Shown here piece after piece: positions 7,971 through 46,232 of a DNA stretch of 64,000 nt. The stretch comes from Acanthopagrus schlegelii. Taxonomy: Eukaryota. Numbering within the stretch: the stretch's first letter is position 1; each line of letters begins with the position of its first letter. Under the pieces are notes generated by a model. It ran no database searches and was not told the DNA's origin. It saw only the letters and a program-made list of their open reading frames with translations. The stretch lies in contig CM085480.1 of the NCBI GenBank assembly GCA_041753875.1, forward strand, positions 5,799,958 to 5,863,957. Direction: 5' to 3'. The position numbers and the translations under genes are program-made.

Positions 7971-8369
7971 TTCATTTTTACCTTCGAAGGTGTTAGTTAA
8001 GGTTTGGGTTTTTAGGAAGAAAGAAAACAGCCTTGTAGAATGAACATGTTTTTACAGTTCAAACGGGGAAAGAGGTGGGACCAACTCTTCAACACATCTT
8101 AATGACGTAACAATGCGCAAATCTTCAGTAGAGATCAATACCTTCCATTTCAAAGATTTAAAGGTTTTTGTTACATAAAAAAGATTCTGATTTTGATGAG
8201 TTATTTTGTTCCATTATGATTAAAGCAAATATAAATTAGTAGTGAATATCAGTTTGAACATCAGATAACAACAGTTTCATCCAAAGAACATACACTTAAT
8301 CCACAACCTCCCAAGCTGAGCAACATGGACCTTGTCTGATCTTTAACGTCACTTTGATGCTTTTTCCAG

Positions 8370-8512: not shown

Positions 8513-10667
8513 GTAGTGAGGAGTTTTTCCTTACAGAGCCTCGATAGATTGTAAAGTCCTCTGAGACAAATTTGTGACTTGTAAATAAAATTGACTCCTA
8601 CATGCCTTCTTACCTTCCTACATACTTTATGCGCACCTCCGTTTTTGCCCCCCAAAAAAGTAAAGGAACAAATTACTGAGAGACAGAGAGATCACACAAC
8701 ATTAATCAGAAACAGTCAGCGAGCCTGGCAGGAGTTGAGCCACTTGACAGAACGCACAAAAGTGAGATTCTTATGGTGAGTGCACATGAGGACAAGATGG
8801 GCAGCTCCCTCCAGCCAATGTCTCTGTTCTTGGAGGGCGAAAACAACGGCCCTTTGCCAATGTTGCAGGGGTCATGAGAGGAAAGCACAGGCAGGAAGCT
8901 TTTGTTCATTGCTGTGACAGGACGGCTCCTGCTCCGGTGTCAGAGGAGTCAACCTCTGGATCCAAATATTGATACCAACGTTGGTGTTGACTTTGCTCCT
9001 CCTACCCCCTCTTCTGTTTTGATGTTCTGTACTGTCACATGACTCAGCAGCACTAGGCAAACAAGCAGACAGAGCAGAAGAATGGCAGAGAGGAAGAGGA
9101 GCACCACGTGGCTATATTTTCAGGCCGTAAATGAAGCAACTGCAAGCTGTATAATTTGCAAAAAGGCTGTAAGATAAAGTAGTAACACAAGAAGGGCTAC
9201 AGAAACAGAGCCCAGGCCCCCGACCCAGAGGCAGAGGTCATTGGCAGAGGCCTTTCAGTCTGGCAGAGAATATAGTGGTGAAAGTAGTATTTTAGTCATC
9301 TTTGGGATTAGTTAATATTAATTTTCAAAGTGAAACTGGTCTGGTCTTGTATAAATTATGCTAAGACCTTGATATAATAGATTTATCCCATTAAAACACA
9401 TTTAAATGAATACATTTACTGGAATTGAAACAAATATAGTGAATATAATATGAGTCAGATTTGATTGAGTAAAATTTGCCTTTTGTGTTAACTGTGTATG
9501 CTTACTATAATCAAACTTCAAGTGGATGTTTTTCACACTTTATTATTTTATCATTTCACTTAGCTGATTCCCCAAGAGTTTCCGAACACTCTCCCTACAA
9601 AAAATAACACACAGAGGAGCCTGCTGTGCACCAGCAGACTTGTAACCACGGTAACGGAGGATGCCAGATAACCAAGATGTCACATTCAAATAACAACAAC
9701 TTAATCCCTGATTGTTCTATTTCTAGTACCACTAAATTTAAATGACGAGTGCCTCATGCAGATCACTGTAGTAACCCGAGTAACAAACAATATTCCTCAC
9801 ATTGCGGTAGACAGAGTTACCGTGAAATCATTATCCAGTGCAATGTGGAAATGTTAATTCTTTAAACCAATTCAACCACTTCAGAGCGTCCTGAACACAA
9901 ACTAATGTTATAACCACCCAGTCACTTGAAAGGCACTTTTGCTAACCAGTAGCCATAAAGACAGAGCTAAACACTGGAGTTAGTATACAAGCTAACAAGT
10001 TAGATTTACCATCAAGCTTCGGAGCTCGACTGCAACAGGGGTCCTTACTTGTCCAGCAGAAAAGCCACTAACTCTGCGCTGCTCTTGAGTCCTTACAAAT
10101 CCCACAGTTCCCTCCACCTCTGAAATGACGCTCCGATATTTATCCTTGTTTTCTCTGTGGCTCAGTCCAATTCTGTCCTTTTACACTGCTTTTCTTCCTC
10201 AGTCTTCTCATTTCTTCTCTTTGACATGGGCAGTGGTGGGGCATTGTTCAGCTCTGTTGTTGTTGTCTGTTCTCCACCATTATTTACAGTTTAGGCTTGA
10301 ACTTATCTGACCAGGGTGAGAGCAGGCATGGTGCCTGCTTGGGGGAGGGGTACAGCCCAGTACATGCTGCATGAGGGAGGGGGGCTGCCAGCAGCATGCA
10401 CATGAGTGATTGATACTTCTCAGCCACTCCCCTTAGCTGTGATTGGTTGTACTGAGCCATAGCACAATATAACATCTGCAAATCAAATTGGGGCCACTGG
10501 GTGGAGCCACAGACAGTGGATTTGTGCACAGCTGACCTGTATCTTATTCAGGTGCTCATAAAAGTTTGATATGAATGTTATTGTATTGCTCAGATGAATC
10601 CCTATTAAATGTAATATGGTTCAGAATTAACTGGAAATAATGGCTTTATTTCCTTTACTTCGGACAG

Positions 10668-10771
10668 GAATTCATCTCTAAAATCATCAAGGAAGATACT
10701 TGGATTGGTTTGAATGACAGAGACAAGGAGGGGACCTGGAGATGGATAGATGGAACTCCGCCAACTGTGGT
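10668..10771 (+). CDS. Gene B exon 5: CRD exon 2 EFISKIIKEDTWIGLNDRDKEGTWRWIDGTPPTV(V)
   Basis: Acceptor cggacag|GAATTC and donor gtggt|GTAAGG. It is 104 nt long. The WIGL and WxWxDG motifs are present. Confidence 0.85.
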
Positions 10772-10875
10772 GTAAGGCAAACAGTAGCAGACTCTACATT
10801 ACTAGAGTCATTTCTGTCTGATTGAACAATTGTTATCAGAATCCGACTGACTCACTTCCTTTAATAACCTCCTAG

Positions 10876-11032
10876 GTACTGGTTTGAAACACAGCCTGAT
10901 AATGGTGGTGGAAACCCAAAGTGGGGCGAAGAGGACTGTATACACCTCATATTTGGTGAGAATGCCAAAAGGAACTGGAATGATCTGCGATGTGACAAGT
11001 CTCTGAAGTGGATCTGTGCCAAAATGCCTTAG
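10876..11032 (+). CDS. Gene B exon 6: CRD exon 3 YWFETQPDNGGGNPKWGEEDCIHLIFGENAKRNWNDLRCDKSLKWICAKMP*, with QPD and WND
   Basis: Acceptor cctcctag|GTACTGG, with TAG at 11030-11032. The frame is continuous with exon 5. Confidence 0.85.
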
Positions 11033-11186
11033 TTTTGAAACAAAGCAATGACAATGAAAGTGAGATGATTATGAAAATGTCAGAGAGAGAAAGAGTAGAC
11101 AACATGTTTAGGGGTGTTATTGAGCATTTAGCATGTGTATACCTTATTCTATCATAAAGACAGGCTGTTAATAGGAGGATAATAAT

Positions 11187-11192
11187 AATAAA
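11187..11192 (+). promoter_or_regulatory. AATAAA polyadenylation signal in the gene B 3'UTR
   Basis: A second AATAAA lies at 11251-11256. A conserved 3'UTR block with AATAAA is shared with gene A at 772-777 and gene C at 31922-31927. Confidence 0.5.
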
Positions 11193-11649
11193 GTTGCTTG
11201 ATATCATATCTGAAGGATCTGCATGTCTTGTCAAAATTCTTGTTGCACAAAATAAATGCAGCAGCCAGTTTCCACGACACAGCCAAGAGCTTTCAGTGTA
11301 AGAACCCTAATGTATTTGTACTTAACTTTTCAAGGTGATGATACTGTACACAAGATATCTGATGTGAAAGTTACTATGTTGTTCCCCATCAAATAGAATG
11401 TATGTTCCTGAAAGAGCTCATGTAGCTCTAATTCTAACTCTGGTGACAAGACTACACAACTTAACAACCCAAGTATGCTTATACTTAATTTTTTTCAGTC
11501 AGGACAACTTGTTCAATAAAGACCTTTATGCTAACATTCACCGCTTTGACCAATTCAGACGCACCAATTTTTCTAACTATTATGACCCCTCTCTCAAATT
11601 AGTTACTATAACATTTCAAAGTCCATCTCTAAATTTCTAAAGCTATGAT

Positions 11650-12420
11650 TTAACGGCGACAAGTTGTTTTTCCTGATGGTGAGTGTGGGAACGTGGTGAT
11701 CTTTGTGTTGACATGTCCAGGAGCCCGGAGCCATTAATCAGCTCTCTGTGTGCCTTAAAGGTTAACTGAGTTTGGCCCTCATGCCAGATGATGCCTTTTT
11801 GTCAAATGCCCTCTCATAATGTTACTGGTGCTGCAGAATAAACCTCCCCTCTTCTTCCTGCTTTAAGTACCAACGGCCTGCAGGCATAATTCAATCACCT
11901 CGATTGCAGGGCGGTGCTGCGCAGACCTATATGTAAGTGCGTGCCTTCCTCATCAGATGTGTGTCTGCTGCCCTGTTATATGGAGCCTGGTTTCCGCGTT
12001 GGCGGCGTGGTTGTTTCCGAAGCTGTGTTTGTCGGATCGTATTTTCCCACTGAGATTGTAAGCGGAGCTGGCCTGTGTGCTGGCTGAAGGGACTGGGTTG
12101 GAGCCCAGAGTCCGTGCTTATCGACCTGAGCGTAACGGCCCGTGTGCGCTCGGCGTTGCTTTGCTGAGCTGCTGCGCTTCATCCCCGGTGTCTCTCACTC
12201 CCGTTGACGGGGCCGCTGCACGGGAAACCTTCCGGCCAAGCTGGACACCACGGCAGGTGGTTTATTCCCAACCATAAGCCGTCTGCTCGCTGGGAATCCC
12301 CGCTGTTCTGTCTGCGCCGTTCCGTCTGCATTGTCTGTCCACGCTGCTCTGCTTTACTCTGTCCGCTCACGCTACACCGAGCATAATTAAAGGAGCATTC
12401 AGGACTTTTATTTAACTAGG
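11650..12420. other. CpG-rich island in an otherwise AT-rich intergenic region
   Basis: There is a dense run of CG dinucleotides, for example ccgcgttggcggcgtgg...cgtaacggcccgtgtgcgctcggcg. Both-strand ORFs here are GC artifacts. The copy-2 duplicate lies at 43720-44490. Confidence 0.5.
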
Positions 12421-13785
12421 ACATGACCATTGGATTGTCGGTACAGGATCACTTCATTCATTTTTCATTTATGTTTTTTTGTTGTAACCCCCAGTGTTTA
12501 ATTTTATATTTTCCTTATTCCATTATTCATTTAGCCCATTGGTCATAGTGTCTGTGTGAAGCACAAGTAAACCCAGTGCTGACATCCTGACCCTATTCCA
12601 GTGTGGTAGTGCTCTTTGAAGCCAGTGTGGTGTTTTGCGCTGTGCCCACCTTCCATGACTTGATTTTATTAATGTTTGCTGATTCTCTTTCATCAAACAG
12701 CTGCTGAGCCTGAGCGGGTGGCTGACTGATCCCTTTGGTGGCGGTCACCTTCACTTCCTTTTTCAGCAGCGTGCAATGTGGTGCGATCTGATGGTGTGTG
12801 TGTGGGTTTTGGTGTGTCTCATTGGACCCCTTCCCCTCTCCATCAGCTAGTCACCTTTGCTGGGAGGCCCACAGCCCTGCGCACTACACCTTTAATTTTG
12901 ATTATACTTTTGAGTGAAGGTTATGGGGCCAAAAGAATAACTGTGCAATATTGGGCTAAAAGGGTAACTGTGCAATAAAATTTACAAAATCTCCACCAGA
13001 CTATAATACTTTTAAAGAATTGTGTTCATTTAAAGAGATTAAATAAACATGTGTATTTTTGGAAGCACATGAGTGATTTTGGACCTGTGACCTTTTCTGT
13101 GTAGTACCATTTAAAATTTAAGTTCTTTTAAAATGTAAACCCTTGCTGCTTCGCCACAATAAGTAGAGACCATAGGCTAACCCATAAGCCAGAGGTAAAT
13201 GCCTATAGGTGGTTCCAGAAGAGCACAACTCTGGATGAGAGGATTCCTTTCAAGGGGAAATTCAGCAATATCAAGCAATATATGCGAGGCAAGTCAAACC
13301 CATGGGGATTCAAAGTGTGGGTGAGAATTGGAATCTCTGGTGTGACTTCAGTTTCTACCAAGGCAGTGTCAGTGGAATACGAGCCGAATCTGAACTTGGA
13401 TTGTCAGGTCATGCTGTGATGAAGCTTGCTTCCACACTTCCAGATGTAACCTTTTAAGAAGGTACAGAGTACACAGGGGCTTCAATGAAGAGGCCACAAC
13501 AGACAGTGTGAGTCATACATGCCATTTATTTTATTACAACTACAACTCTAAGAACACAGGCAAGAGGAGACAAGAGGCCAGACAGTCATACTAAATATAT
13601 CATTATAAACCCAACACACTTCAGAAAAAACACCACATTACTACAGTGTGCAACCACAAACAATATCACCATCTAAAGTGAACTCCCAGCATCAGCCTCG
13701 CCAGCTGCAGCACTAGAGACAAAAGGAGACAGAATGTTAACACTCTAAAAGAATTCCAGTCCTATAAAAAACTATTATATATATA

Positions 13786-13836
13786 TATATTGATATATAT
13801 ATATATCTATATATATATATTGATATATATATATAT

Positions 13837-13880
<44 letters not shown>

Positions 13881-13892
13881 ATATATATATAT

Positions 13893-13928
<36 letters not shown>

Positions 13929-13997
13929 ATATATATATATATATATATATATTGATATATGAATATATATATATATATATATATTGATATATGAATA

Positions 13998-14048
<51 letters not shown>

Positions 14049-14098
14049 ATATATATATATATATATATTGATATATGAATATATATGTATATATATAT
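13786..14098. repeat. (TA)n / (TATATATATTGA)n compound microsatellite
   Basis: Direct reading. The ORF 13790-13987, which reads IYIYIY..., is an artifact of it. Confidence 0.95.
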
Positions 14099-15199
14099 AA
14101 ATTTAAATTTAAAATGTTTTTTTTATATATATATATTTAAATGAGCATGAGGCCACTTCTTTGCATTTCAAAGTGAACAAATACATTTAAAAGCTCACGT
14201 GTGTTCCTTAGATTAAAAAAAACAAAACATGGCTAATGAATTGTCTCCTGTTGAGACTTAGGTTTCCTCAGCCCAGGTTTGTCTAACGCCGGACAAAACA
14301 ACGTGAACATGGTGTACTATATTTTGGGGCGGTATCTATATTTAAATTTGAGGGCAAATGCTCAGCAACACCCACATGAAATTCAATGAGATCTCACGTG
14401 GTGTGGTGTTTAAAAAAAAAAGAAAGAAAGAAATAGAATGAAAAAAACATAAAGGGAATAATCCCCACTGTAAGTACTAGCACGTTATTTATCCATGCCT
14501 TTAAAATGCCTTGTGTCTTTTATAAGACTTTGTTTCAGGCCTGAGCGGTGGGAGGAGGTGAAGAGAGCGGTGGACTGGGTCTGCTGGGCTGACCGGCTGC
14601 CCATTACTGGTCCACTGAGCAGACACACAAAACGCATAGCTGTAGCCTTGTTAGAGGAGAGAAGGTAAAAACTTTCAACTAGAAATGTTTTCAAACACAA
14701 CTGAACTCATTTGTTTGCCTTACCTGCTGTTAAATAACTAAATACAGTATGCTTTCTGCAGTTAGCAGATTTCTTAAAGTTCCCATGAAACGTATAGTGC
14801 ACTGCTGTCGGCTGCGGCATGGTTGCGTGTCCTGTAAAAACAGCAGCAAGAAAGGGGCACGTCCCGAATATTGATTGACGTTTACAATAGTTGATAGTGC
14901 CTAATGTGCATTACTGAATCTGGCCATACAAGCAATCTAAGTAAACACAGCTGAACCAGTACATGTCCACAGGATCCATCGTTTCCACGCTTACCATTCA
15001 TTGTCTGTGTGTAACCGGATCAACCTTGTGTGTTGAATCAAATGTGTATATAATTACACAAAATCTGTTACTGCCTGACAAGAAAAAAAAATGCCTCCAA
15101 ATCCATTATGTGTAGACTGTGTGTGTAGCTCGAGGCGCCTACTCTTGAATTTCTTCTTCTGTGGTCCTTGCTATAAATGCCCACCTCTGCCCTTTCGTA

Positions 15200-18849: not shown

Positions 18850-19258
18850 GTGAGTCTGTTTTTCATCAGTCAGTGTCGGGTGAACTTGTGAGAGATACTC
18901 GTGTCTTTATGAATATGATTTTACAGCCATGGTAAATATATTCCAGCAGCTAATGCAGCAAAATGACATATTTGAACATCTGTGGATGATGAAGAGCTGA
19001 ACCATGTTTGAATTCAGGTGCAGGTTGCTCAGTATTTAGATATTTGCTGGGGAAACATCAGAGCATATTATTATAAAGACTGTACAACACTGTTTGGACT
19101 TCAAGTTCATTTCAGCCCTCAGGTTGATATTTCATAGACTGCATGAGCAGAATGAACATCTTCCTCTGTCAGGACAAATTAGGATGATTTTGACTCAAAT
19201 ATAGAACCTTTAGTCAGTATTGGTATCAGTGCATGAGTGAATCTTGATTTAATTTCAG

Positions 19259-19426
19259 ACTGGGATTTAGCTGCAGAACACTCCACTGTCAAAGCCAACC
19301 TGACGGAGCGTCTCCAGGCCAGTAATGACAAGCTGTCCTCTGTGTCTGAAGAGAGAGACCTGCTGAATGCCAACCTCACTTCAGTGTCCAAAGAGCTGGA
19401 CAGACTTCAGAGTTTGTCCAAACAGA
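19259..19426 (+). CDS. Gene C exon 3: neck, 14 aa longer than in gene B (...DKLSSVSEERDLLNANLTSVSKELDRLQSLSKQ)
   Basis: 168 nt long, which is 126 plus a 42-nt in-frame insertion duplicating two heptads. Same acceptor and donor as B exon 3. Confidence 0.8.
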
Positions 19427-20264
19427 GTGAGTGCTCGCCTGCCTGTGTGTGTTCTGCACAGCTGTCTGTTAACATGAAGGACAGGAGCTGCCACGGCCTC
19501 ATTTATAGAACACCTATATACAGAGACTGTGCTGATCAGACACTTGTATCCCACTCTCACTTCTGTAAATTACATTCATGTACCCATGACTTTATTCATT
19601 CTTTCAATTCATTCAAACAGGAATATATTTAAGTTAATGCACCTTTTTTACTTGGATAGTTTAATAGTTTCCATATCATATATTTTTTTTTAATATAACG
19701 CTATGTCTTCAGTGTGGCCACTGACTGTGACATGATCCTTCTTGAGTTTCACACTTGAAAGACTTTCAATTCCCTATAACATTGTGTGAACCACCCAATG
19801 AGAGTGCAGCCTTTTTAAGGGTGGAGTCCAATTTACAATATTTTCCCCCTCTTGAGACCTTTCCTTATTGCCTTACTTTTTGAGTTCATTGAGTTGGAAA
19901 TGATACTAATGAAATTATTGTGAGGGAGCACAAAAGTATTGCTTCTATTGAAGACCTGAGAGGCAAGTCATCCAAACAGTTAGGGAACTTCAAAAGATAA
20001 CCCCCCTGTAAATATTTTTTCCACCTTGTGTCATAAACATGACAGGGGAAACAATCTAGATTTTAAATAGTCTGTGAAATAGTAAGTGCTGTCAAGCAAT
20101 TTAGAAAATGATCTAATCAATTACAAGCTTTGTGATTAATTAAGCAAATCATGGGGTGTCTTGAGTTAGAGAAGACATCTTATACATCTCTCATCTATTT
20201 ATAGATGGAGCATTCAGCTAGAGTCATTTCCTTGTAATTGCTTGTCTAGCAGCAATACCAAATA

Positions 20265-23050
20265 AGAGTTTCGTTTTAATATTTCAACATAAAAGCCCAA
20301 AAAGCCATTCCAAATATAGTAACTAATTCTGAATAAATCTTACGCCAAAAGGCATTTACTTTTGGACAGGCCCAGAACAAGTGATAGTGGTTTGGCTTCC
20401 TGGGAGTACAAACACACTCTACAAACACTCCTAACCCTTCCAGCCAAACACCCTCCATGCAACTGAGCTCGATATCCTTCACTGAAATTCACAATATTCC
20501 TTCCAAACTTCTTATGAGATAAAACTGTTAGATTCCCTCTCCTATTTTTGTTTATATAGGTGGAGCTTGTTAACTTGATCTCTTGAAGAGCCCTGTATAG
20601 TCTTGAAATTACTTTAAGCCCTGAATCACTTTTACAGGCACTAATAAGAACTTTCAATATGCTATTTTCAAATGTCTTTTTGCATTACCTGTTTCCATTA
20701 AATTCTTAAGTCTTTTATACCCTAAGAAAGCCTGGATTGGAACAGCTCCTGACACCTTCTCTTCAATGTCTTTCCATCTTGCCGGTAATCATGATTGCAC
20801 CAACTATACAAAATGTTCAGTTGGGCTGAAATACAATATTCTTTCAGGCAGGGGAGTGTAAGTCCTCCATTGTTTTTCGTCAGTTGAAGTTGAAATCTTG
20901 GCCTTGTTTTTTTCCCCTTGCCAGATGTATCTAGATAGTAGTTTATCCCATTCATTGAACTGTCTATCTGTAATTTCAACTGGAACAGTCTGAAACAAAT
21001 ATAGCACCCTAGGTAATATAGTCATTTTTACCGACTCAATCCGTGACTCAAAACCTAATACTGGGATTAAATTCCACCTCCTTATGTCTTCCTTCATCTT
21101 TTGGCTGAACAAATCATAATCTAAATCATACAAATTGGTTAGCTATCTTGGTATGTTTACTCCCAAATATTTAATAGGATTGATATCCCAATTTAATCTG
21201 AACTTGGGGCTAATGATCTGCCTAGGTCTATAGTTGAAACTTAAAATTTGGGACTTTGAAATATTCAGTTTGTATCCTGATACCAAGCTAAAGGCATCCA
21301 AAAATGACAACAATTACAAGATTGGGTGCGACAAGTAGATAAAAACGTCAACTTAATGCCTCAATTAAAATTGCAAACAGTAACAGATTTAGTGGACAGC
21401 CCTGTCTAGTCCCTCTTTCTAGGCCAAATGACTTTGATACTTCTCTGTTTATTTTTACTCTTGCCTTTTGGTTATTATAGGCTTTAATAGTTTCAATAAA
21501 GGTCTTTTGAAATTCAAATTTTCCTAATACACTATATAAGAATTCCCAGCTGACGCTTGCCTGAAGTTTATTTTCTTAACATTATCTATTACATGTAACG
21601 TCCAGCGAATGTTATCTTGTGTCTGCCTTTGCTGGATAAAGCTTGTCTGGTCCAGACTTATTATCTGGGGGAGGTCTTTTTGCCAAAATGTGTGTAAAGA
21701 TTTTGTAATCCTGATGGAGCACACTCACTGGCCAATAACTTCCACACTCAGTTTTGTCTTTCCCCTCTTTTGGAGTCAGAGAAATCACTGCATCTCTAAA
21801 AGAAGGAGGAGTTATGCCAGTCCTAACAACATGGCTGTATGTGTCCTTCATGAATGGGGTCAGCAAATTAATTTTAATTTTAATTTCTTTGTACCACTCC
21901 GAAGGGAAACCATTGGGCCTTGCTGCCTTATTGTGTTTTAATTTGATATTGCCTTTTTAATTCCTTCATCGGTCATTTCTTTAGTTAAACCTTTATTTTG
22001 TTTGTCCCCCACTTTAGGTAGAGTTATCAGGTCTAAGAAAGCTTCCGTCTTTGTTTCATCTACTATAGATTGTGTATACAAGCTTTTATAAAAAGTTGCA
22101 AAAGATTGCTGTATATCTTTTTTATTATATTGAATGGAATATGTTTTAAGGTCCCTTATTTTATTAATTGTGTTTTCAGCCTCTTGCTTTTTTAATTTGT
22201 AAGCTAGCAGTTTAGCTGTTTTTCCCCCTGCTACATAGCACCTTTGTTGAAGGAAGATCATCTTTTTTTCAATGTCGTTTGAGTAGATTTCATTCAATTC
22301 ATTTTATTTTTGTCCATCTTTGTTTTTGTTGCTTGACTCATTGTATTTTTATGCATGTCCCAATTTTTCTACTGTTTTTTTTTTAGTAGCCTATAATCTC
22401 CCTCCCAAGAACCTCTTTGCAGGCATCCCGCAGAATAAGTGGGGACACTCCCCCCTTATCATTTTCGTCAATGTATTCTCATCCTTATTTGCCGTCTCCT
22501 TTGATTCAGGATCTCTATGTTTAATCTCCAAATAGTATCCTTTTTCCACGACTTAATATAAATCCATGACAACTGGGTCCCTATCCTGCAATCTATCGCT
22601 CTATATAAATCTTAATCGATAGAAGTTGAGCCTCGAGTAAACACTAGGTGGGCGTGAAAAAAAAAGAGTCCCTTTTTGTGGGGTTCAGATCTTACCAAAC
22701 ATCAGAGAGCCCCAGCTCCTCATCATTAATTTGATATTTTGGTAGTTTTTCTTCTTCCCTGAATAAAAATGTTTCGATGTGTCGAGAGTCTGGTGAAGTC
22801 TAACATTAAGGTCTCCACTACAGTTTATAATACCCTGAGCCTCAGAGCTGACCAACTCAAAAATTTGTTTTTTAAAATTTCCATTCAGATCCTGGGGGGG
22901 GGGCATAAACATCTATTAAAGTAGCCAGAACATCTTGCAGATATCCCCGGACTAATACAAATCTCCAAGTCTCTGTCTTTCTTTTCATATGTGCACTTAA
23001 AATGTGAAATGAATTAAAATTGTTACCACTCGTAGAACCCTGACTGCAGG
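20265..23050 (-). mobile_element. L1-like non-LTR retrotransposon (LINE) on the minus strand. It spans ORF2 from the C-terminal end of the endonuclease domain, through the RT, to the C-terminal zinc knuckle, with frameshifts.
   Basis: Minus-strand ORFs cover these parts in order. First, GDLNVRLHQTLDTS, the endonuclease C-terminus. Next, ISLTPKEGKDKTECGSYWPVSVLHQDYKIFTHILAKRLEKILPQIISLDQTGFIQQRQ, the RT. Then MTILPRVLYLFQTVPVE..YIWQGEKNKAKI, the thumb. Last, CTPRKPNHYHLFWACPKVNAFWRKIY, the C-terminal C2HC-like motif. Confidence 0.8.
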
Positions 23051-26000
23051 AGGATAAATATTGGTTAAATCCCCATCACTTGGGATGCAGTGGAGGAGTG
23101 CAGACTGTGTTGGTGAGCTCTCGGTGGTGGAACCTATCATCTGCTTTTATCCTGATTTAACCTCACACATCTTTGGTTTATCTGCAAGAGGTGAAGCCAA
23201 TAAGAGCACTTTTATATGGCAAGCTACAATTTTCAGCATACAAAGCGAAAGAAAGCTGCAACTCAAATTTCACGGTACCTGCATGCTGTAACCATAAGAA
23301 ACATGGCGGACGGGGAAAAAGAAATATCCTTCAGCAAATTTCTCGATGCTATTCAAGAAACTAAAAATGACCTCACAAAACATTTTGACAAGAAAACAGC
23401 ATACAAACAACGTTAACGAAAATCGAGTCCTCACTCTCTACGCTGGCGGAACATGTCAAGGAGATGCACACACGAGTGAGTACGACAACGAAGACGATAT
23501 CAAAGATACCCACGACCGTGTTGCTGAAATGGAGAAACTGATAACGCACCTCAAAGACAAAACTGACAATTTAGGAAACCGCAGCAGGAGGTCTAACATT
23601 GGATAGTAAATGTTCCGGAACAAGCAGTGGGTCGTCATACCATAGGATTTTTGAAAAGGTTTATACTGCAAGTCCTGGGTAACGATCACCTCACCTGTTA
23701 CACTGGAAAGAGCGCCCTGCATGGGGAAAAAGTTGGACAGACTGCAGCCCCTCATCACCAAATTCCTGAACTTCAGAAGTAAAGGAGAGATGACATGGAG
23801 AACAAAAGAATATTCTTTTACCCAGATTATAGCGCAAACCTGCAGCGTAGGAGAGACGTGAAGCGGACGCTGCGAGAGAAGGTGGTGGAATACGCTCTGA
23901 TCTACCCAGCCCAGCTTCACATCAAACATCTGGGAACCGTCAAGTTTTTTCTCCATTCCAGCCCAAGTGCAACGTTTTTTGAAAGAACTCCCAAGTGAGT
24001 AGCCTGACCAAAGTTACCGTTATAGACACTGATGAGGAAGAAAGGAGGAAAACAAAGGACTACAATCTGACTACACTACAAGACTTGGCTATGAAAAGGT
24101 ACAACATCAAATCTCTCCAACGTAGGAAGGCAAAACGGCTATGAAACAATATTACGCTAATATTACGCAGGCTAAGCTGTGAAAAATTAACAAACAAAAT
24201 ATCATTCCAATAGAGGAAAGAAAAGGCTATAAACTTAACTGCAAGACTGAGCTGCACTATAAAATGATTAACAAAAAATCACTCTCTAAGAGGCAAAAGA
24301 AAATACAGAATTACTGACAAGGAAAGACAAGGGTTGTGGTGAAAGTATATATACTATAAAATTAAAATACATGAGGGTGATGGGGAACAGGTGGACACAA
24401 TCAGGAATTGGGGAGACGTTCAGACTGGTGACACATGAGGAAGGGCAAGTGACCTGAAATGAGTTGCTTTTCAAAATAAAACAGGAAGTTCACGAGAAAA
24501 AAACAAAGACAAACCTCACCGCTGTGTGACACCCACAAGGCAAAACAAATTAGAAAGAGACTAACCAAATTGGAAAGAGATATTAAAAAGCAGGGAACAG
24601 GATTACATTGCCACCAAAAAGGAAGAACACCTTAATGCACTAACAAAAACAAGGATTCAATATAATAATGTACTAACAAAGAGGAAGCAGCTATGCCCAG
24701 CAATAGATATCACTATTATGAATTTGGGAACAAAACAAGTAAACTCTTGGCTTGGCAAATTAAAAAGGAAACACCTGATAACTGTAGACACTCAATATTA
24801 ACAGAGGGGGGCAGACTCCTTGATAATTCACTATCCATAAATGCAGAATTCAAACAATTTTACAAAGATTTATATAAAACTGGGCAGGATGCTGATAATA
24901 TTGGAGCAAAAAGGTTCATGGATGGAATAACCCTTCCCAAATTACAAGATGAGGGCAGAGATCTGCTTGATGCAGATATATCAGAAATGGATATACTCCA
25001 AGCAACAATCACACTGCTACCAAAACCGGGTAAGGACAAACAGAAATGTGACTCATACAGACTCCTCAGCCTCTTAAATGCAGATTATAAGATACAATCC
25101 AAACTAATTGCTCTAACACACGCTGACGAAACAGGCTTTGTTACAAACAGGCACGGAGCAGATATTGTGCAGCGACTGCTCCACATACTGAACACTGCTC
25201 AAAAAAAATCAAAATCCTATGCTAATAATGTCTATGGATCCAAAGCATTTGACAGGATTGGACCAAGCTTTCTATTTCAGACTCTAGAGGCTATGGGCTT
25301 TGGAGAGAAATTCACTCATTCACTCATTCACTCTGTTTAATGCCCCCAAAGCTAATATTTTAACAAATGACATTGTACCTATCACTTTCTCATTATCCAG
25401 AGGGTGCAGGTAAGGCTGTCCAAGCTCCCCCCTGCTCTTTGCACTTGCAATTGAACCGTTAACCATCGGCATCCACTCCAACACCCCCATAACCGGAATT
25501 TATTTGGCACAAATAAACATAAACTTTCTCTATATGCAGATGATCTCCTATTATATATAACTGATCCACACACATCAGTCCCCCCTTTTTTGGAATGCCT
25601 CAAAGAATATAGTGCAGTTTCAGGGTATAAATTCAATTACACTAATAGCGAGATTTAACCACTAAATATACAAGACAACAGTATTAGAGCTCTCACTGAC
25701 CCACTGAAATGGCGCAACATTGGTTTCAAATATTTGGGTATGATAATTGGTAAATTGCTTGAGCATATATTTAAAAAGAACTATATAAAATTATTGGAAC
25801 AAATCAAACTTAACCTTCAAAGACTGATTGATCTCCCACTGTCTCTCATAGGCAGAATTAATACTATAAAAATGAACATTTTGCCCAAGTTTATTTACCT
25901 ATTTCAGTGTCCCCCACTGAATGTTCCCAAGAGTTTCTTCAAAGAGCTTAACAAAATTATACTCCTTTTATATTGCAAAGGAAAAACCCAAAGTTTAAAC

Positions 26001-27065
26001 ACATCTCTCTACAGGCTTCATATTCAAGAGGAGGACTTAATCTACCAAATTTTAGGAATTATTATCTTGCTTCATAGTACCCATCAATCTGGATCTGGCT
26101 GCATGCAGAGAACAGTGAGGTTAGATGGGTCCCAATAGAACAACACAAGATGAAGTCTATGCCTCTAAAGGATATTCCATTCTTAGGTACAAAAAAATGT
26201 TTAGCCACACTCACGAACAATTCAATAATACTGAACACATTTTCTACTTGGCAATAATCTCACTCACTTCTTGACACAAATATTTCTTTTCTTGGAAGGG
26301 CCTCTTTGTGGGTAATCCCAACCTCTCACACCACATAGCTGAGTCAATGTTGCGGGGGTGGAGGGACATAGAAATCCAAACAGTTGCTGATTTATACATT
26401 AATGATTCATTTACTAATTTCCAAAAACTAAATGAAAATTTCAACCTTCCCAAAGTTAGTTTCTTCAAATTCCTACAAATTAGAGACTGGGTTAAGGAGA
26501 AATCCAAAGAAACATTCCCATATATCCCAAAAGAATCTCCTCTTGAAACCCACCTAACAAATTACACAGATCAACAAAAGGAAAAAAATATATATATGGT
26601 ATCATCAGTGGAAAGTTGCCTTTTTATGATAAAACATTTACAAAGGGGAAATGGGAAACAGACCTAGGCTGTATTAATGAGGAGGCAGACTGGCATCATC
26701 TATTGGAACAGGCACAGACTGTACTAACCTCCACAAAACACAGGCAAATTCAATTCAAAATATTCCATAGGCCATACTACACCTCTTACAGTTTACATAT
26801 TCATTTGTGTATGTTTCTATTGTAAAATCCAACTTTCAGTGTATCAAACTGTAGATGCTTGCTATACACCATAAACATCAGCTCTTCTGGAGCTACTGTT
26901 GATCAAAACAAATCTTACAAAAAAAAAAATCTCCATCACTTAAGTTTTTCGTGTTCTGATTCTGTTAAATGGGCCTCTGGTAAGAAAGCTACGTCCACCC
27001 CCTCCCTCTTCAATTTTGTCATAACCTTGCTCCTTCTGATGGGATTTTCAAACCATTGACATTGT
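23050..27065 (+). mobile_element. Second L1-like LINE on the plus strand. It has a 5'UTR and a disrupted ORF1 from ATG 23303. Its ORF2 lacks most of the endonuclease but retains the RT.
   Basis: ORF1-like sequence includes ...NRSRRSNI.. and YPAQLHIKHLGTVKFF, which resemble the L1 ORF1p RRNNIRIIG and CTD motifs. ORF2 RT sequence includes ITLLPKPGKDKQKCDSYRLLSLLNADYKIQSKLIA..DETGFV and [34 protein letters not shown], and it also carries a thumb region and a C-terminal region. Confidence 0.8.
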
Positions 27066-28300
27066 ACGTGATTATTTTAGTTGACTTCATACCTTACATT
27101 TAGTTTTGTTGTTTTAAGCCCCTGTACGCCTGTAACTGAGTCATATCTTACACCCCTGGTGCTGTAAAGAATGATACCACAAACCATAAGGGAAACAAAA
27201 CTGTTAACCTGCATCACATCACAATCAATAACATCGTCATCCAAAATTAAGGCCTCTTTGATGGCCTCCTGGCTCTGATGGAATGTGAGTCCGACCACAA
27301 AACCTGTCCTCCATAAGCCCTTACTCTCATCTTGCTGATGCAATCAATGTCATGTACAGGAATATGTTTGATACTAGAATGTCCAAAAAATTATTCACTG
27401 CACTGTAAAAGATAACTAAAGAATGCTATAACTATATGAATGTCATTTTTGAATTTGATTGATCTTGGCGGGGCATCCATCGGAGGATTTGAGGCGAGTG
27501 CCCGGTGCGCTCTCTTGATAATTAGCGCTGCAGAGGGAGGGAGCTCCTGGCCCTTCAACAGTAAATCTTCCACCAAAGTAATCACCGATGTCATGTTTTC
27601 TTCAGCTCCTTCTTTTACCCCATGTATTCTGACATTGTCATGAAATGAGGACCCCTGTATATCAGTCAACTTAGCCTCCGTTTGTACATGAAGCGTCACC
27701 AGCTCCGATAAAACATCCTCTGCTGACTGGATTCAGGTCTCGGCTGCTTTGATTCGTTTCTCTGCTTCTTCCATAATGTTACGACCCTCTAAAAAAAAGA
27801 CAGCTCGTCCACAGAAGGCCCCACATAATTAATCAGTCAGGAAAATCCCAATAATTGACCACTTTATTTATAGTGCAAGCCACATTCCTTCCTCTTTTAA
27901 GTCTTCCCCTCAATTATCAAATAAGGGCCACCTGGGAGAAAGCACAACACAACAAACAAAATGGTCAACAGAATCTCTGGTTATACCTTTCCCATCCAGC
28001 AGGGGGGGAGTATGTAAATGTTGTTGTCAGTATCCTCTCGCATGCTGTTTACTTAGCAGTCCTTCCTGAATTCTCTTAGTTCTTTCAGTATTACATCCAG
28101 CCTTTCGTGTTTGTCCCGACTCTGCGTCGGTCTGCATACTGGTCTCCATCCTGCTAATGCTGCTAACTTGCAGCGGATGACCTTCTCTTCGTCATCGTGT
28201 TTCTTACTTTGTGCAAGTATTTTCTTCCCCTTTCTGATGGGCATGCTCTATCAAATGTTTTTTGTTGTTGTTGACTATACTGCAGTTTTTATTCATGCTT
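27066..28300 (-). mobile_element. L1-like ORF1 region (coiled-coil plus RRM-like/CTD) on the minus strand. It is probably the 5' portion of the minus-strand LINE at 20265-23050, split by the plus-strand LINE.
   Basis: Minus-strand ORFs read NVRIHGVKEGAEENMTSVITLVEDLL..IKRAHRALASNPP..PRSIKFKNDIHIVIAF and FVVGLTFHQSQEAIKEALILDDDV. These match L1 ORF1p conserved blocks. Confidence 0.6.
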
Positions 28301-28371
28301 GTCGTTTATTGATTGTTTTTGTACTTGTAAGGCAACCTTGAGTGCCATGACAGGCACCATCAAATAAAATG

Positions 28372-28379
28372 TATTATTA

Positions 28380-28413
<34 letters not shown>

Positions 28414-28414
28414 C
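28372..28414. repeat. (ATT)n microsatellite
   Basis: Direct reading. The copy-2 counterpart is at about 60437-60467. Confidence 0.9.
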
Positions 28415-28829
28415 ATAGTCATTCGCCCATTAAAACTCAGCTTGCTTTGACATTACTTTAATAAATTTGAGTTTATCAGACGTTTTTGAAATATTGCTGT
28501 AGGGAGCCTGCTGCCTAAGCTGCCATTATGTCACCCGCAAGAACGGAAGTCCTCAGCATAAAGATTTAACAATGTGCAAATATTGAGAGGAGATCAATAG
28601 CTTCAGTTTCTAAGATTGAAGTTATTGTCATTGAAAAATATTTTGACTTTGATGAGTTATTTTGTTCCGTTCTTATTTAAGTAAATATAAATATATAGTG
28701 AATATCAATTAGCACATCAGTTAACAACATTTTCATCCAAAGAACATGCATTTAATCCACAACCTCCCAAGCTGGACAACATGGACGTTGTCTGATTTTG
28801 AATGTTACTTTTTTTGATGCTTTTTCTAG

Positions 28830-28972
28830 AGAGAACTTGTCCTGCAGGATGGAAGATGTTCAGTTGCACCTGCTATCTCTTCTCTGCAAAGACTGATTCT
28901 TGGGAAAATGGCAGACAAGACTGCAGAGACAGAGGAGCAGAGCTGGTGACCATTGACACTGATGAAAAACAG
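28830..28972 (+). CDS. Gene C exon 4: CRD exon 1 (N/K)RTCPAGWKMFSCTCYLFSAKTDSWENGRQDCRDRGAELVTIDTDEKQ
   Basis: Acceptor tttctag|AG and donor aacag|GTAGTG. It is 143 nt long. The flanking intron sequence is homologous to gene B at 8200-8350. Confidence 0.8.
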
Positions 28973-29249
28973 GTAGTGAGGAGTTTTTCTTTATATTGCT
29001 TAGATTGTGGAGTCCCCTGAGACAAATGTTTGATGTGAATAAAACTGACCCCTGCATGCCTTCTTACCTTCCTAAATACTTTATGTGCACCTCAGTTTTT
29101 GCCCCCCATAAAAGTAAGGGAACAAATTACTGAGAGGCAGAAAGATCACACGACATTAATCAGAAACAAAGCCCAGCAAACCTGGCAGGAGTTCATCCAC
29201 TTGACAAAACACAGATAGGCGAGAGTGTGATGGTCAGTCCATGCGAGGA

Positions 29250-30300
29250 CATTATTCCTCCTGACTCTGGGAGAAGATGAGAATATGATCTAAATAAGTG
29301 AACACAAACCAGTTGTCACTGAGAACATCGTTGACCAAGGCCTGGAAGACAACAGGGGAATTGGTGGGACCAAAAGTCATGACTTGGTACTCTAAATGGC
29401 CGAGAGGATCGTCTACTAATTTCCTTCTCGTATGTGCACCCACTGATAAGCATTTCCAGGATGGCAGCCTGGTGGAGAGGTCCAAACGCTGAGTTGATGA
29501 TAGGGAGGGGGTATTTGTTTTTGACTGTTGTTTCATTCATACCTTTGTAGTCGATGGCCTTATAGATCCATCTTTTTTTAGCCACAACAAAAAAGGAAGA
29601 GTGGTGAATGAGTCTGGTGGGTATGTAAGCTGGTGATATGAGTCTCCTTTGCATCTTGTTTAGGGCGGGTAAGGTTGTAAAGACAGCTTGTAGGAAGAGT
29701 GGCACCAGGAAGTAGGTCAATCTAAGAGTTATATGGTCTGTGAGAGTGCATGGCCCTTGCTAAATATGTCGCTAGGGTTGTGATAGTTGGAGGGAACAGA
29801 GGAAAGGTCATTGTGTTCAGGGGTGGCAGGAGTGGAGTGGTAGCAGGAGGGGGCAGCAGAGTGAAGGCATGGGAATGACGAAATACACTCCATGTGATGA
29901 TTCTTGAAGCTGACCAATCAATATGGGTGTTGTGCATCTAAAGCCACAGGAGACCTAAGACAACTGGGGAGTGAGGTGAAGGGCTTACAACAAAATGTAT
30001 TGTCTCTCTATGAAAATGGAAAGAATGGAAAGAAGGAGAGTGGGTGGAACAGTACAATGAGTGATTTGAGCAGGTAATCTACCACCAAGTGCAAAAACAA
30101 AACCTTGGGAGAAGGAAGAGTCTCAGTGGGAATGTTAGCTTGGCAGACAAAGTCAGAGTCAATTACGTTATTGTCAGTACCCGAGTCAGTCAGTACCTGA
30201 AGTGGGAGAGTCTGTAGCTTGAGGCGAGAGGGCATAGAGGAGGTAGGAGTCAATCGGCTCATCAGCGCCCCGCTGTTGTGTGATGACACTGGTCTTTTAT
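29250..30300 (-). mobile_element. Ty3/gypsy-type LTR-retrotransposon pol fragment with aspartic protease plus the N-terminal RT. It is truncated after YLDHILIFS and carries frameshifts.
   Basis: Minus-strand ORFs read VLTDSGTDNNVIDSDFV, the protease D-S/T-G motif. They also read [66 protein letters not shown], the RT with a YxDD-like box. Confidence 0.8.
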
Positions 30301-37372: not shown

Positions 37373-40300
37373 GTGAGTGCTCGCCTGCCTGTGTGTGTTC
37401 TGCACAGCTGTCTGTTAACATGAAGGACAGGAGCTGCCACGGCCTCATTTATAGAACACCTATATACAGAGACTGTGCTGATCAGACACTCTCACTTCTG
37501 TCAGTTACATTTATGGCCGGTTTGACTTGTACCAATAACTTTATTCATTTTTTAATTCCTTCAAGCAGGAATATATATATAAGTTAAAGCACCTTTTTAC
37601 TTGGATATCTTAACAAGTTCCAGATTATAGTGTTTTTTTTAATGCTATGTCTTCAGTGTGGCCACTGACTCTGTGACAGGATCCTTCCTCAGCTTCACAC
37701 TTTCACTTCCCTATAAGGTTGTGAACCACCTAATGAAAGTGCAGCCTTTTCTAGGGTGGAATACAATATTTTTCGCTCTTTGAAGATTGTTCCTTTTTGT
37801 CGAGCAATTAAAAAAAATGATCTTGTCAATTACAAGCTTTGTGATTAATTAATCAAAATCAATCACATATGGAGCCGATATTTTAACCTTCAGTCCTCCG
37901 GTTGTATACAAATTCATAATTGCACAAAACATTGCTCCTGTAAATAGTTCCATGGGCATTTTAATGCAGCACCACTCCATTGTGGTTTGGTATTAATATC
38001 CATGCTAAACTTTTCAAATGCATTCATTCCTGTAGTAGTCTATTCTTTATAGTACATACATTCTAAATGTCTATTTTTATTCCAGTGTCATAAAGAGGCC
38101 GTCTTTGTAGCAGGAATATTGGTCAGGTCGAAGCATTTATGTGTGCAGCGTTTGAGTCCGGGACAAATTTCATCAGGGGGGACAGCAGAGTGTATTGTCA
38201 TCTTCATTGACATCATTCAGCAGGAAAATTATTCTTGAAATTAAACGTGCAAATAACAACAGAAACAGCTGACAGGCCCTTAAACAAAAAGTGAAGACAT
38301 AAATTAAAGCGGACATCTGCTGCGACAATTTCTTATATACAGGCCACTCATTTAAAGAAAAAAATGAAATAATAGATGTCTACCAAACTGAGATAAAAGC
38401 AGTCCATGGTTATGTTTTCTAACTTTAGCCGCTATATACATGTAATAAACATGCAAATGAATAGAACACTCTTTTAAAGGTCCCATATTATACTGTTTTT
38501 CATGTATTTCACACAGCTGTCAGAGGTCCAACAACACTGTATTCGATATGCATTGCCCCAAACCATCCATAGTCCTGAATTTCAGCTGTCTAAAAGTCCC
38601 TCAATTGAGCTCTACTGAATGCAGGCTGTTCAGGCTGCAGGCTAATGAGCTCTGTCTTGCCTGTTACACACCCCTCTCCGGGGGAGGATGACGCTTGCGC
38701 TACCGGTAGCATGCACTTGTGTTTTGCAGTGGATGTATGGCTATGGCTCGCGGTGATGCTTTTGTTCAACCATACCAGTTTGACCCAGAACTGGACCCAG
38801 AAGGAGAGGCTCCTGAGGAAGTACAGACCTTGTGGCTGCAGCAGGATGTTTCAGAATGGTTAGTGTGTCTGAATGATGTTAGTTTGTTCATATGTATTAC
38901 AATTACTGCCATGTAGCTAATGGCTAACAGCTAGTGAAAGCTGTGTTTGTCTCCAACACAGTCTCTAAACTCTTGGACACTGTTAGCATCGTCTCTGTCT
39001 CCAGTCTGCACGTTTCCAGATTTTTTACTGTGACAACCAAGCTCCATCATAAAATGATTAATATTAAACTCACTTGAAACACAATTGCATTGTGGACCAA
39101 AGCAGAGCTAACTATTAACTAACCAAGTTCCAGCTGACCTCACCACTCGTAGGTAACTGTAAATACTATCAAACCGCAGCGACACTTACCTGTGGCTCAG
39201 GTGCAGTTGCTGGGTCCGGTATGGTTGGGACTGATCTTTGTGCGAGGGTCAGTGTCGAGGCAAAGCCAGCTTTGTACTGACACTCGTTACTGAAGCTGTC
39301 TGATGTTAAGTGGTTAGCACACACACACAAACTAACACAACCCGTAGCCGGCACGTTGTCGTTAAAAAATGAAACGCAACCACTGTCTCCTCTGTTGTTC
39401 TGTAGCTGGGACAGAATATAGGCACTGATGTTGATTTTTACAACCAACAATAGAGTAATTTGCGTGTCTAACTCTGAGCGACGACATTGCTAAACATTGC
39501 TATCTTACAGCTGGACACACAGAACTTCACCTTGGGGATGGACGCCCCCCTCTCGGATATCTACTATCATTGTGCAGAGGAAGCCTGTCTATGTAAATGG
39601 CTACTTTCATTACGTAATGAAAGGAGCTGAATCTCAACAGACTGTAGGAGCGCTGTTTTACCAGTGGGTGGGCTGCAGAGACCATGCAGGAATCTGGTTT
39701 TACCAGTGGGTGGGCTGCAGAGACCATGCAGGACTCGTTTGCTTTCCTCATTCTGGGAGTTGGCAGGCTCAGGGAGGACCAGCTTATATATGTAGACACC
39801 AGAGAAAATGTGTTTTTCATAATATGGGACCTTTAAATGAACGTCAGGCCACTTCTTTGCATTTCAAAGTCACATGCGTAAAATAAAGTTGGATTCTGGA
39901 GGTTCCCCACACATTCATTCACTCCTGTTTTGAGGTAGTTTAAAGTCAATGATCCAACATGAAATAATCCATTCATTCCTCCTAAAATCAAATCTATATC
40001 ATCCAACTATTTCAAGGTTTTAGGTTTTATTTTTCGTATTCATTTTTACCTTTGAAGGTGTTAGTTAAGGTTTGGGTTTTTAGGAAGAAAGAAAACAGCC
40101 TTGTAGAATGAACATGTTTTTACAGTTCAAACGGGGAAAGAGGTGGGACCAACTCTTCAACACATCTTAATGACGTAACAATGCGCAAATCTTCAGTAGA
40201 GATCAATACCTTCCATTTCAAAGATTTAAAGGTTTTTGTTACATAAAAAAGATTCTGATTTTGATGAGTTATTTTGTTCCATTATGATTAAAGCAAATAT

Positions 40301-40437
40301 AAATTAGTAGTGAATATCAGTTTGAACATCAGATAACAACAGTTTCATCCAAAGAACATACACTTAATCCACAACCTCCCAAGCTGAGCAACATGGACCT
40401 TGTCTGATCTTTAACGTCACTTTGATGCTTTTTCCAG

Positions 40438-45821: not shown

Positions 45822-46232
<411 letters not shown>

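Follow-up and report, generated by a model that had tools for sequence, protein, structure and literature searches.

Nested L1 elements of two lineages in the third intron of a C-type lectin gene of Acanthopagrus schlegelii

The lectin genes and their third introns

The window analyzed here is a stretch of 64,000 nucleotides from contig CM085480.1 of Acanthopagrus schlegelii, to which the coordinates below refer, and it contains a cluster of lectin genes. Gene C, the host of the elements described in this work, has a Pfam match to Lectin_C (E-value = 1.4e-20). Its product is 93–94% identical to CLEC4E-like proteins of A. schlegelii, and its homologs in Sparidae are CLEC4E/CD209-like. Exon translations revealed a neck and a hydrophobic, TM-like segment. 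Based on these features, the host gene encodes a CLEC4E/CD209-like C-type lectin, predicted to be a type II membrane protein whose lectin domain follows a coiled-coil neck. Elsewhere in the window, palindromic self-matches at 13.8–14.1 kb correspond to a (TA)162 microsatellite.

The last base of exon 3 of gene C is 19426, directly upstream of GTGAGT. Intron 3 occupies 19427–28829 (plus strand, 9403 bp), with GT at 19427–19428, AG at 28828–28829 and the terminus ...TTTTTCTAG at 28829. The exons join in phase, giving the product ...SLSKQ-K-RTCPAGWKMFSC, which is the start of the Lectin_C domain. LINE-derived sequence accounts for 8405 bp (89%) of this intron. The corresponding intron of the paralog B (5305–8369, plus strand) is 3065 bp long and contains no LINE, so that the C/B ratio is 3.07; both the intron coordinates and the roughly threefold inflation given in a first-pass annotation of the window were confirmed. 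A second pair of genes shows similar lengths: intron 3 is 3065 bp in gene D (37373–40437) and 9311 bp in gene E (51543–60853).

The sizes given earlier for the introns of B and C hold, whereas the use of gene B as a baseline does not. Intron 3 of gene B has itself gained a TIR element of 1.35 kb (6411–7763) and other blocks, and represents neither the ancestral state nor a pristine baseline. Gene C, on the other hand, has lost sequence. Neither gene B nor the Sparus aurata locus (L006), which represents an empty site, has the two LINEs of gene C, and the homology of gene B and Sparus to the gene C intron ends at 20148, next to the outer LINE. A Sparus segment (L006 11543–12705), which is ancestral intron partly retained in gene B, is missing in gene C exactly at this junction. 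The empty site together with gene B thus shows that gene C lost ancestral intron sequence at the 3' end of the outer element. Both paralogs have therefore contributed, by gain and by loss of sequence, to their difference in intron size. The retrieved A. latus locus (L005) contains orthologs of genes A and B only, and the two insertions are dated only relative to the paralogs and Sparus.

Two L1 elements of different lineages

In agreement with the first-pass annotation, intron 3 of gene C contains a minus-strand L1 (hereafter M) that is split by a plus-strand L1 (hereafter P). Both carry a reverse transcriptase (RT). The bounds proposed in the first-pass annotation had to be revised. For M they were 20265–23050 and 27066–28300, and the real ones are 20149–23081 and 26942–~28553; for P they were 23050–27065, and the real ones are 23082–26926, a shift of 32 bp at one end and 139 bp at the other. 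Full-length relatives (L002, L003, and L004) were used to delimit both elements. These references come from other species, with 65–86% DNA identity, and are not a consensus of this genome.

The 3' portion of M (20149–23081, minus strand) was delimited by tblastn matches to P0002, P0005, P0006, and P0021 and by a blastn alignment that reaches position 5200 of L003. It spans ORF2 from about residue 55 of the endonuclease, through the RT, to residue ~810 of 839, about 30 codons short of the end; no 3' UTR, tail or target-site duplication (TSD) was found at the 3' end of M. The 5' portion (26942–~28553, minus strand) begins ORF2 at ~27099, from where the N-terminus of the endonuclease reaches 26942. 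The segment 26942–27099 is thus part of the endonuclease of M, and belongs neither to the inner element nor to ORF1. Upstream lies an ORF1 remnant (27403–28244, minus strand; residues ~17–177 of 312), which is interrupted by an unmatched block of 233 bp (27781–28013). Considering that an Rfam search of 19000–29500 returned nothing, this block is no recognizable SINE or tRNA-derived element. The 5' UTR (28245–~28553, minus strand) includes (ATT)14 at 28372–28413, and M has its 5' terminus, GACTTCCG..., in common with L003 and L004. M is thus 5'-full-length but truncated at the 3' end.

The domains of M are recognizable but decayed. Pfam searches of whole six-frame translations with masked stops detected only the RT, and endonuclease and ORF1 were assessed through stitched or reference-guided sequences. 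The RVT_1 match of M (about 21342–21764, minus strand; E-value = 2.7e-4) is under the Pfam cut-off because the copy has decayed, and the stitched endonuclease scored 23.4 bits for Exo_endo_phos against a cut-off of 24.5. ORF2, which has at least 25 stops, is collinear with fish L1 ORF2 proteins that carry PF03372 and PF00078 (E-values down to 1e-127). Within ORF1, the stretch 27403–27774 is 55% identical to residues 62–177 of the L003 ORF1. The latter protein matches Transposase_22 (26.7 bits, cut-off 22.4), and the ORF1 fragment from the window, taken alone, has no Pfam match. Across endonuclease and linker, M is only about 90 bp shorter than L003; its endonuclease is complete but decayed. 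The ~0.5 kb of endonuclease-coding sequence previously thought to be unaccounted for was a consequence of misplaced boundaries.

In terms of the L1 clade, M has an ORF2 with endonuclease and RT and an ORF1 of the coiled-coil/RBD-like type, and a 3' tail and TSD are absent. We attribute the missing 3' end to deletion; it bears on the mechanism of integration rather than on family identity. Since M has neither a TSD nor a tail, target-primed reverse transcription (TPRT) is only a putative route of its integration.

P (23082–26926, plus strand; 3845 bp) is complete at its 5' end but has internal deletions. It aligns to L002 by blastn with 75–86% DNA identity over ORF1 and ORF2, and its homologs in Seriola and other percomorphs are 60–83% identical. 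A 5' UTR (23082–23216, plus strand) precedes ORF1 (23217–24007, plus strand), which was identified by tblastn with the L002 ORF1 and by blastn to L002 1–934. All 282 reference residues of ORF1 are covered (one alignment spans 1–281), with frameshifts and stops. An A-rich block of 524 bp follows (24008–24531, plus strand); it is matchless and replaces the 1.5 kb of inter-ORF spacer and endonuclease present in the reference. The ORF2 remnant (24532–26797, plus strand), which includes the RT, has its start at about residue 301 of P0125 and its end at residue 630 of P0068. It contains at least ten stops and an internal deletion of 144 bp (48 codons) at 25002/25003. Fish L1 ORF2 proteins match it with E-values down to 1e-113, and its RVT_1 match (about 25023–25743, plus strand; E-value = 4.7e-13) exceeds the Pfam cut-off.

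The 3' end of P (26798–26926, plus strand) consists of 118 bp of matchless sequence and an A11 tail at 26916–26926. The terminus was placed from only the A run and the TSD, since the end is unmatched in L002, the one full-length relative available for P. When the 524-bp block and the last 129 bp were compared with L002, L003, and L004 by low-stringency blastn, by Smith–Waterman alignment with shuffles and by collinear global alignment, the scores equaled the shuffled mean. Likewise, P showed no match to residues 1–300 of P0125 or to L002 935–2432, where its endonuclease would be expected. Its relatives P0125 and P0070 carry PF03372, indicating that the family has an endonuclease and that the domain is absent from this copy. 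The earlier statement that both ORF2s lack a complete endonuclease thus stands for P, in which it is wholly absent, and not for M. P has an RT of the L1 type and an upstream ORF1, and an APE-type endonuclease is missing; an A-rich tail, a TSD and a TT|AAAA-like target are all present.

M and P belong to different L1 lineages. The ORF2 proteins of M-type references are 43–51% identical to M versus about 27–28% to P, and those of P-type references are 60–83% identical to P versus about 34% to M. Teleost L1-clade families form numerous divergent lineages of about 5.8 kb that are active at the same time and whose 5' termini are conserved (PMC5381506). The present locus is similar in several respects: two lineages with ~27–34% ORF2 identity occur at one site, the reference relatives on retrieved contigs are 5.4–5.7 kb long, the 5' terminus of M is common to relatives from other samples, and ORF1 combines a coiled coil with an L1 RBD-like domain. 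In contrast to those families (PMC5381506), the M and P copies are old and dead, and are at least duplicated in this genome.

Junctions of the nest

P is flanked by a 15-bp TSD, AAATC[C/T]CCATCACTT, in which 14 of 15 positions match and which lies at a TT|AAAT site. The 5' copy, AAATCCCCATCACTT (23067–23081, plus strand), is part of the endonuclease sequence of M and is preceded by TT; the 3' copy is AAATCTCCATCACTT (26927–26941, plus strand). When pairs of 60-bp windows with this spacing were placed at random, 1 of 3000 placements gave a 15-mer shared with no more than one mismatch. The 15-mer in question, AAGTGATGGGGATTT, is sequence of the host LINE M, and occurs once in L003.

Excision of P together with one copy of the repeat restores the continuity of M. 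The endonuclease frame continues over the join, where residues 1–31 and 30–171 of P0005 abut across the two pieces. After excision, one protein HSP covers P0005 residues 1–171, and one blastn HSP to L003 1768–3113 spans the join, with an ungapped alignment at the junction. The frame and both alignments through the join indicate a nested insertion rather than two head-to-head insertions. From the sequence, we consider it proven that P lies inside the endonuclease-coding region of M. Both checks named in the first-pass annotation, contiguity of the minus-strand pieces in a consensus, for which relatives served here, and a TSD flanking the insert, gave positive results. Stops and frameshifts, as judged against references from other species, are more numerous in M than in P, and the order of insertion follows from the topology.

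In vertebrate genomes, cases of one L1 inserted into another by TPRT are routinely sorted out by repeat "defragmentation". As in those cases, removal of the insert and of one TSD copy leaves a contiguous host element here, the TSD consists of host-element sequence, and the insert, which is less decayed than its host, ends in an A tail and lies at a TT|AAAT target. There is no essential difference, except that P is 5'-complete yet internally deleted and that M has lost its 3' end and flanking intron. The nest in gene C is ordinary and of little importance beyond annotation. It does offer a teleost case of nested L1 insertion that is resolved to the base.

History of the nest and alternative explanations

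The most reasonable explanation, in which we have high confidence, is that two successive L1 retrotranspositions into intron 3 of gene C, with P nested in M, were followed by a tandem duplication. M would have integrated, 5'-full-length and antisense to gene C, after the B/C duplication, and its 3' end would have been lost together with roughly 0.5–1.1 kb of adjoining ancestral intron, by a later deletion or at integration itself. P would then have entered the endonuclease region of M, sense to the gene, by endonuclease-dependent TPRT: a minus-strand nick at ATTT|AA would have preceded an integration that left the A tail and the 15-bp TSD. The TSD, the tail and the target motif together argue for TPRT in the case of P. 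At present, P is devoid of its entire endonuclease domain, of 144 bp close to the RT and of the C-terminus of ORF2, and both M and P are full of stops and frameshifts and dead. Finally, the whole B–C unit with the nest would have been duplicated in tandem (32 kb), giving D–E. We infer the order of the loss at the 3' end of M and the arrival of P, and likewise the timing of the deletions in P relative to its insertion.

The alternative that survives best, though we regard it as rather unlikely, concerns the arrival of M. The non-classical, endonuclease-independent route of L1 insertion by break repair yields 3'-truncated copies that lack tail and TSD and are accompanied by a target-site deletion. 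M is without the last ~30 codons of ORF2, 3' UTR, tail and TSD, and the ancestral intron corresponding to L006 11543–12705 is gone exactly at the junction. These features are hallmarks of human non-classical L1 loci, 86% of which have target deletions (PMC1920257). However, 18 of the 21 human loci are 5'-truncated by at least 3000 bp (PMC1920257), whereas M is 5'-full-length at 4.5 kb. A single later deletion that took the 3' end of M and neighboring intron sequence accounts for these features equally well; old intronic elements are often deleted, and M and P each have several internal deletions. P, unlike the non-classical insertions (PMC1920257), is clearly endonuclease-dependent.

A second alternative is that P was already endonuclease-less, internally deleted and non-autonomous at insertion, and was mobilized in trans by an intact relative. 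Such an origin would fit the presence of both termini, of a classical TSD and of an endonuclease-type target in an element with no trace of an endonuclease, in which endonuclease and spacer are not simply absent but replaced by the nonhomologous block of 524 bp. On the other hand, the junction of the 48-codon deletion occurs in none of the ~120 related proteins retrieved, and the sole other internally deleted relative has a different junction. The element is also old, with its many stops, so that deletions after insertion are expected. We consider such a non-autonomous origin improbable. We give equally little weight to a broader proposal: that P may represent an endonuclease-less L1 family of sparid fish (ORF1, a novel 524-bp spacer and RT, trans-mobilized and loosely HAL1-like), and/or that M may be one of the rare cases in which a full-length L1 inserted independently of an endonuclease, deleting about 1 kb of intron in the process.

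A whole copy of the nest was observed in gene E (51543–60853, plus strand), with the same breakpoints as in gene C and the same C/T mismatch in the TSD. In this copy, M occupies 52260–55196 and 59008–60601, P occupies 55197–58992, and the TSD copies lie at 55182–55196 and 58993–59007. K2P distances between C and E are 0.010–0.015 for the left flank, for M and for P, with a value of 0.024 for the right flank, which is short; those between the flanks of B and C are 0.10–0.19. Judging from these distances, the nest is probably older than the 32-kb tandem duplication (K2P ~0.013).

It is quite unlikely that the gene E copy is an uncollapsed alternative haplotype set in tandem by the assembler. The 32-kb units are indeed collinear, with an overall blastn identity of 97.5% and, in intron 3, ~1.3% substitutions and small indels, and the retrieved A. 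latus locus spans one unit only. However, a divergence of 1.3–2.5% with many indels of 5–23 bp is high for allelic variation, and such lectin clusters are typically tandemly amplified, with several paralogs in Sparus and A. latus.

The last alternative, that separate 5' (ORF1 and ORF2 start) and 3' L1 fragments flank an unrelated plus-strand L1 by chance, as the count of ~0.5 kb of missing endonuclease in the first-pass annotation seemed to allow, can be dismissed: with one copy of the 15-mer taken out, the M pieces meet exactly, frame and single DNA and protein HSPs run over the join, and the duplicated host-LINE 15-mer stands exactly at the 5' end of P and after its A tail.

The nest also provides a chronology for the lectin cluster: the B/C duplication, the outer L1, the inner L1 and then the 32-kb tandem duplication. 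Considering its A-rich sequence and its sense orientation within an immune lectin gene, P might conceivably influence polyadenylation or the elongation of transcripts.

Nested L1 elements in intron 3 of gene C

Intron 3 of gene C, one of four lectin paralogs (genes B–E), extends exactly from 19427 to 28829, as proposed in the first-pass annotation: GTGAGT follows the end of exon 3 at 19426, the intron closes with TTTTTCTAG (last base 28829), and the exons join in phase (...SLSKQ-K-RTCPAGWKMFSC). It measures 9403 bp, and the same intron has 9311 bp in gene E (51543–60853) and 3065 bp in each of genes B (5305–8369) and D (37373–40437). Pfam searches detected a reverse transcriptase (RT) on each strand: the plus-strand match lies at ~25.0–25.7 kb (E = 4.7e-13), and the minus-strand match, which is weaker, at ~21.3–21.8 kb (E = 2.7e-4). 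The stitched minus-strand translation matched fish proteins with endonuclease and RT domains (E down to 1e-127), and the plus-strand translation matched a different protein set, with Seriola and other percomorphs best (E down to 1e-113). The total of 9403 bp comprises a left flank (722 bp), the 3' portion of M, the outer minus-strand L1 (2933 bp), P, the inner plus-strand L1 (3845 bp), a second copy of the target-site duplication (TSD; 15 bp), the 5' portion of M (1612 bp), and a right flank (276 bp).

One 15-mer was found at both ends of P, as AAATCCCCATCACTT at 23067–23081 and AAATCTCCATCACTT at 26927–26941. An A11 run (26916–26926) directly precedes the 3' copy, and TT precedes the 5' copy, so that the site reads TT/AAAT, the classical L1 endonuclease target. 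As a chance control, pairs of 60-bp segments with the observed spacing were placed at random 3000 times in the window; a shared 15-mer with no more than one mismatch arose once. Hallmarks of L1 insertion have been summarized previously (PMC1920257).

We then rejoined M by removing 23082–26941 (the insert and one repeat copy) and examined frame, protein, and DNA. The minus-strand endonuclease frame is continuous over the join, with ...AFLPEAHLTESEHEKL on one side and K*WGFNQYLSS...RFVLVRGYLQDVLATLIDVYAPP on the other. On the intact window, the M-type reference protein P0005 matched two pieces (residues 1–31 at 26930–27022 and residues 30–171 at 22653–23075) that abut and overlap only in the duplicated 15-mer; after excision, residues 1–171 fell into a single one-frame HSP. 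Similarly, one blastn HSP that starts at 26998, crosses the join, and ends at 21880 was obtained with 1768–3113 of L003, a 5.7-kb relative of M, in which the 15-mer is present once and the base-level alignment is ungapped at the join. Both observations by which nesting was to be judged, contiguity of the minus-strand pieces in relatives and a TSD at the insert ends, were thus made, and the insertion is truly nested. The alternative of two head-to-head insertions is excluded by the frame, by the protein and DNA alignments across the join, and by the single 15-mer in L003. The junctions had been placed at 23050 and 27065, which wrongly gave 171 bp of M to P. Nested L1 insertion is routine in vertebrate genomes, and neither mechanism nor families hold a surprise; this L1-in-L1 nest in a lectin-gene intron is now described to the base.

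Structure and decay of the two elements

M 28551–28481 matches the 5' end of L003 (3–73), and its terminus GACTTCCG(T/G)TCT is common to L003 and L004, another relative, indicating that M is full-length at its 5' end (~28551–28554). This end directly adjoins 28559, where gene B homology resumes. For fish L1 families, conservation of the 5' terminus has been described (PMC5381506). ORF1 starts at ~28244 and keeps residues ~17–177 of 312, its C-terminal half being deleted; relative to L003 it is interrupted by an extra block of 233 bp (27781–28013, minus strand), which ends in a T run on that strand and gave no Rfam match and no recognizable SINE features. ORF2 starts at ~27099, with the endonuclease N-terminus reaching 26942 and resuming at 23081. 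About 0.5 kb of endonuclease had been thought missing, a consequence of the misplaced junctions: across L003 1768–3113 M is only ~90 bp shorter, and therefore its endonuclease is complete in extent, though decayed (23.4 bits for the stitched sequence against Exo_endo_phos, cut-off 24.5 bits). The suggestion that ORF2 of both LINEs lacks a complete endonuclease consequently holds for P only. Homology of M ORF2 extends to 20164 (residue 810 of 839 of P0006, an M-type reference protein), and M ends at 20149, where 3' UTR, tail, and TSD are all lacking. This ORF2 carries at least 25 stops and more numerous frame changes than that of P (at least 10 stops, three frame changes).

P (23082–26926, plus strand) was mapped on L002, a relative that is nearly full-length and in which ORF1 has 282 aa and ORF2 489+781 aa. 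Three segments correspond: 23136–24007 to L002 1–934 (5' UTR and entire ORF1), 24532–25003 to 2433–2907 (ORF2 from ~residue 301), and 25002–26797 to 3052–4889 (remainder of the kept ORF2). Absent are L002 935–2432 (inter-ORF spacer and whole endonuclease), 2908–3051 (a 144-bp deletion), and everything beyond 4889 (ORF2 C-terminus including the zinc knuckle, and 3' UTR). An A-rich block of 524 bp (24008–24531) occupies the place expected for spacer and endonuclease; neither this block nor the final 129 bp (26798–26926; 118 bp, then the A11 tail) showed detectable similarity to L002, the only full-length relative. P thus retains both termini and a TSD, whereas its interior is deleted in part. 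The deletions may predate insertion, P then being a trans-mobilized derivative, or sequence may have been lost afterwards; the 48-codon deletion junction was found in no related protein compared.

M-type references are ~27–28% identical to P and P-type references ~34% identical to M, whereas own relatives match each element at 43–83%. Such divergence is typical among the many co-existing fish L1 families (PMC5381506). Both elements are dead.

Empty site and order of events

In L006, the Sparus aurata lectin locus, intron 3 of a paralog or ortholog is 2090 bp long (10878–12967); 10878–11542 matches gene C 19427–20110, and 12706–12967 matches 28564–28829. Gene C lacks L006 11543–12705, parts of which are kept in gene B (6092–6410 and 7764–7898). 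Hence gene C not only acquired M but was also deprived of ancestral intron sequence, exactly at the missing 3' end of M. A single deletion spanning this end and the adjoining intron is the simplest account; a minority alternative is an endonuclease-independent insertion of M with target deletion (cf. PMC1920257).

Nor is the gene B intron an unaltered baseline. It contains a 1.35-kb non-coding element (6411–7763; copy in gene D) with 22-bp terminal inverted repeats (AGGTCCCATATTAT...). The element occupies a TTAA site, intact in Sparus aurata (L006 ~12541–12546), and resembles a MITE of the piggyBac type or of another type that targets TTAA. Further private blocks and a ~220-bp deletion relative to gene C and Sparus are also present.

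Self-comparison of the window (fish nuclear DNA) revealed a 32-kb tandem repeat (4152–31793 vs. 36253–63911, 97.5% identical), with ~1.3% substitutions inside intron 3. The repeat is probably a real segmental duplication and less likely an uncollapsed haplotype of the assembly. Two paralogs lie in either unit, B and C in the first and D and E in the second, with 81–90% identity over alignable blocks. Between genes C and E, K2P is 0.010–0.015 for the left flank, both halves of M, and P, and 0.024 for the short right flank; all breakpoints, and even a C/T mismatch in the TSD, are identical, so the whole nest is older than the 32-kb duplication. Intron flanks of genes B and C differ more (K2P 0.10–0.19). 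As M is absent from gene B and Sparus, it arrived after the B/C duplication, and the nest topology makes P later than M. The resulting order is B/C duplication, M, P, and the probable 32-kb duplication.

The lectin gene cluster

Genes B–E encode type II C-type lectins: the exon 4–6 translation matched Lectin_C (E = 1.4e-20), and neck plus lectin domain matched CLEC4E-like proteins of Acanthopagrus schlegelii (93–94% identity), Sparus aurata (76–87%), and A. latus (65–82%). These matches identify the host as a sparid sea bream. Compared with gene B (5190–5304), the coiled-coil neck-coding exon 3 of gene C (19237–19426) has 14 additional codons (SEERDLLNANLTSV), which repeat the neck motif internally. 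An LTR-retrotransposon pol fragment in intron 4 of gene C (29252–30289, minus strand) shows a protease-like motif, LTDSGTD, and a weak RVT_1 match (E = 5.8e-6). A (TA)n microsatellite of ~162 units (13776–14099; second-unit copy 45820–46276), located between genes B and C, explains the palindromic self-matches; similar arrays were found in the Sparus locus. In the A. latus locus (L005), a lectin gene at 9820–11791 has a very short intron 3; its 5' part is 97.7% identical to gene C and its exon-4 region only ~86%, which points to exon shuffling or gene conversion between paralogs of the cluster.
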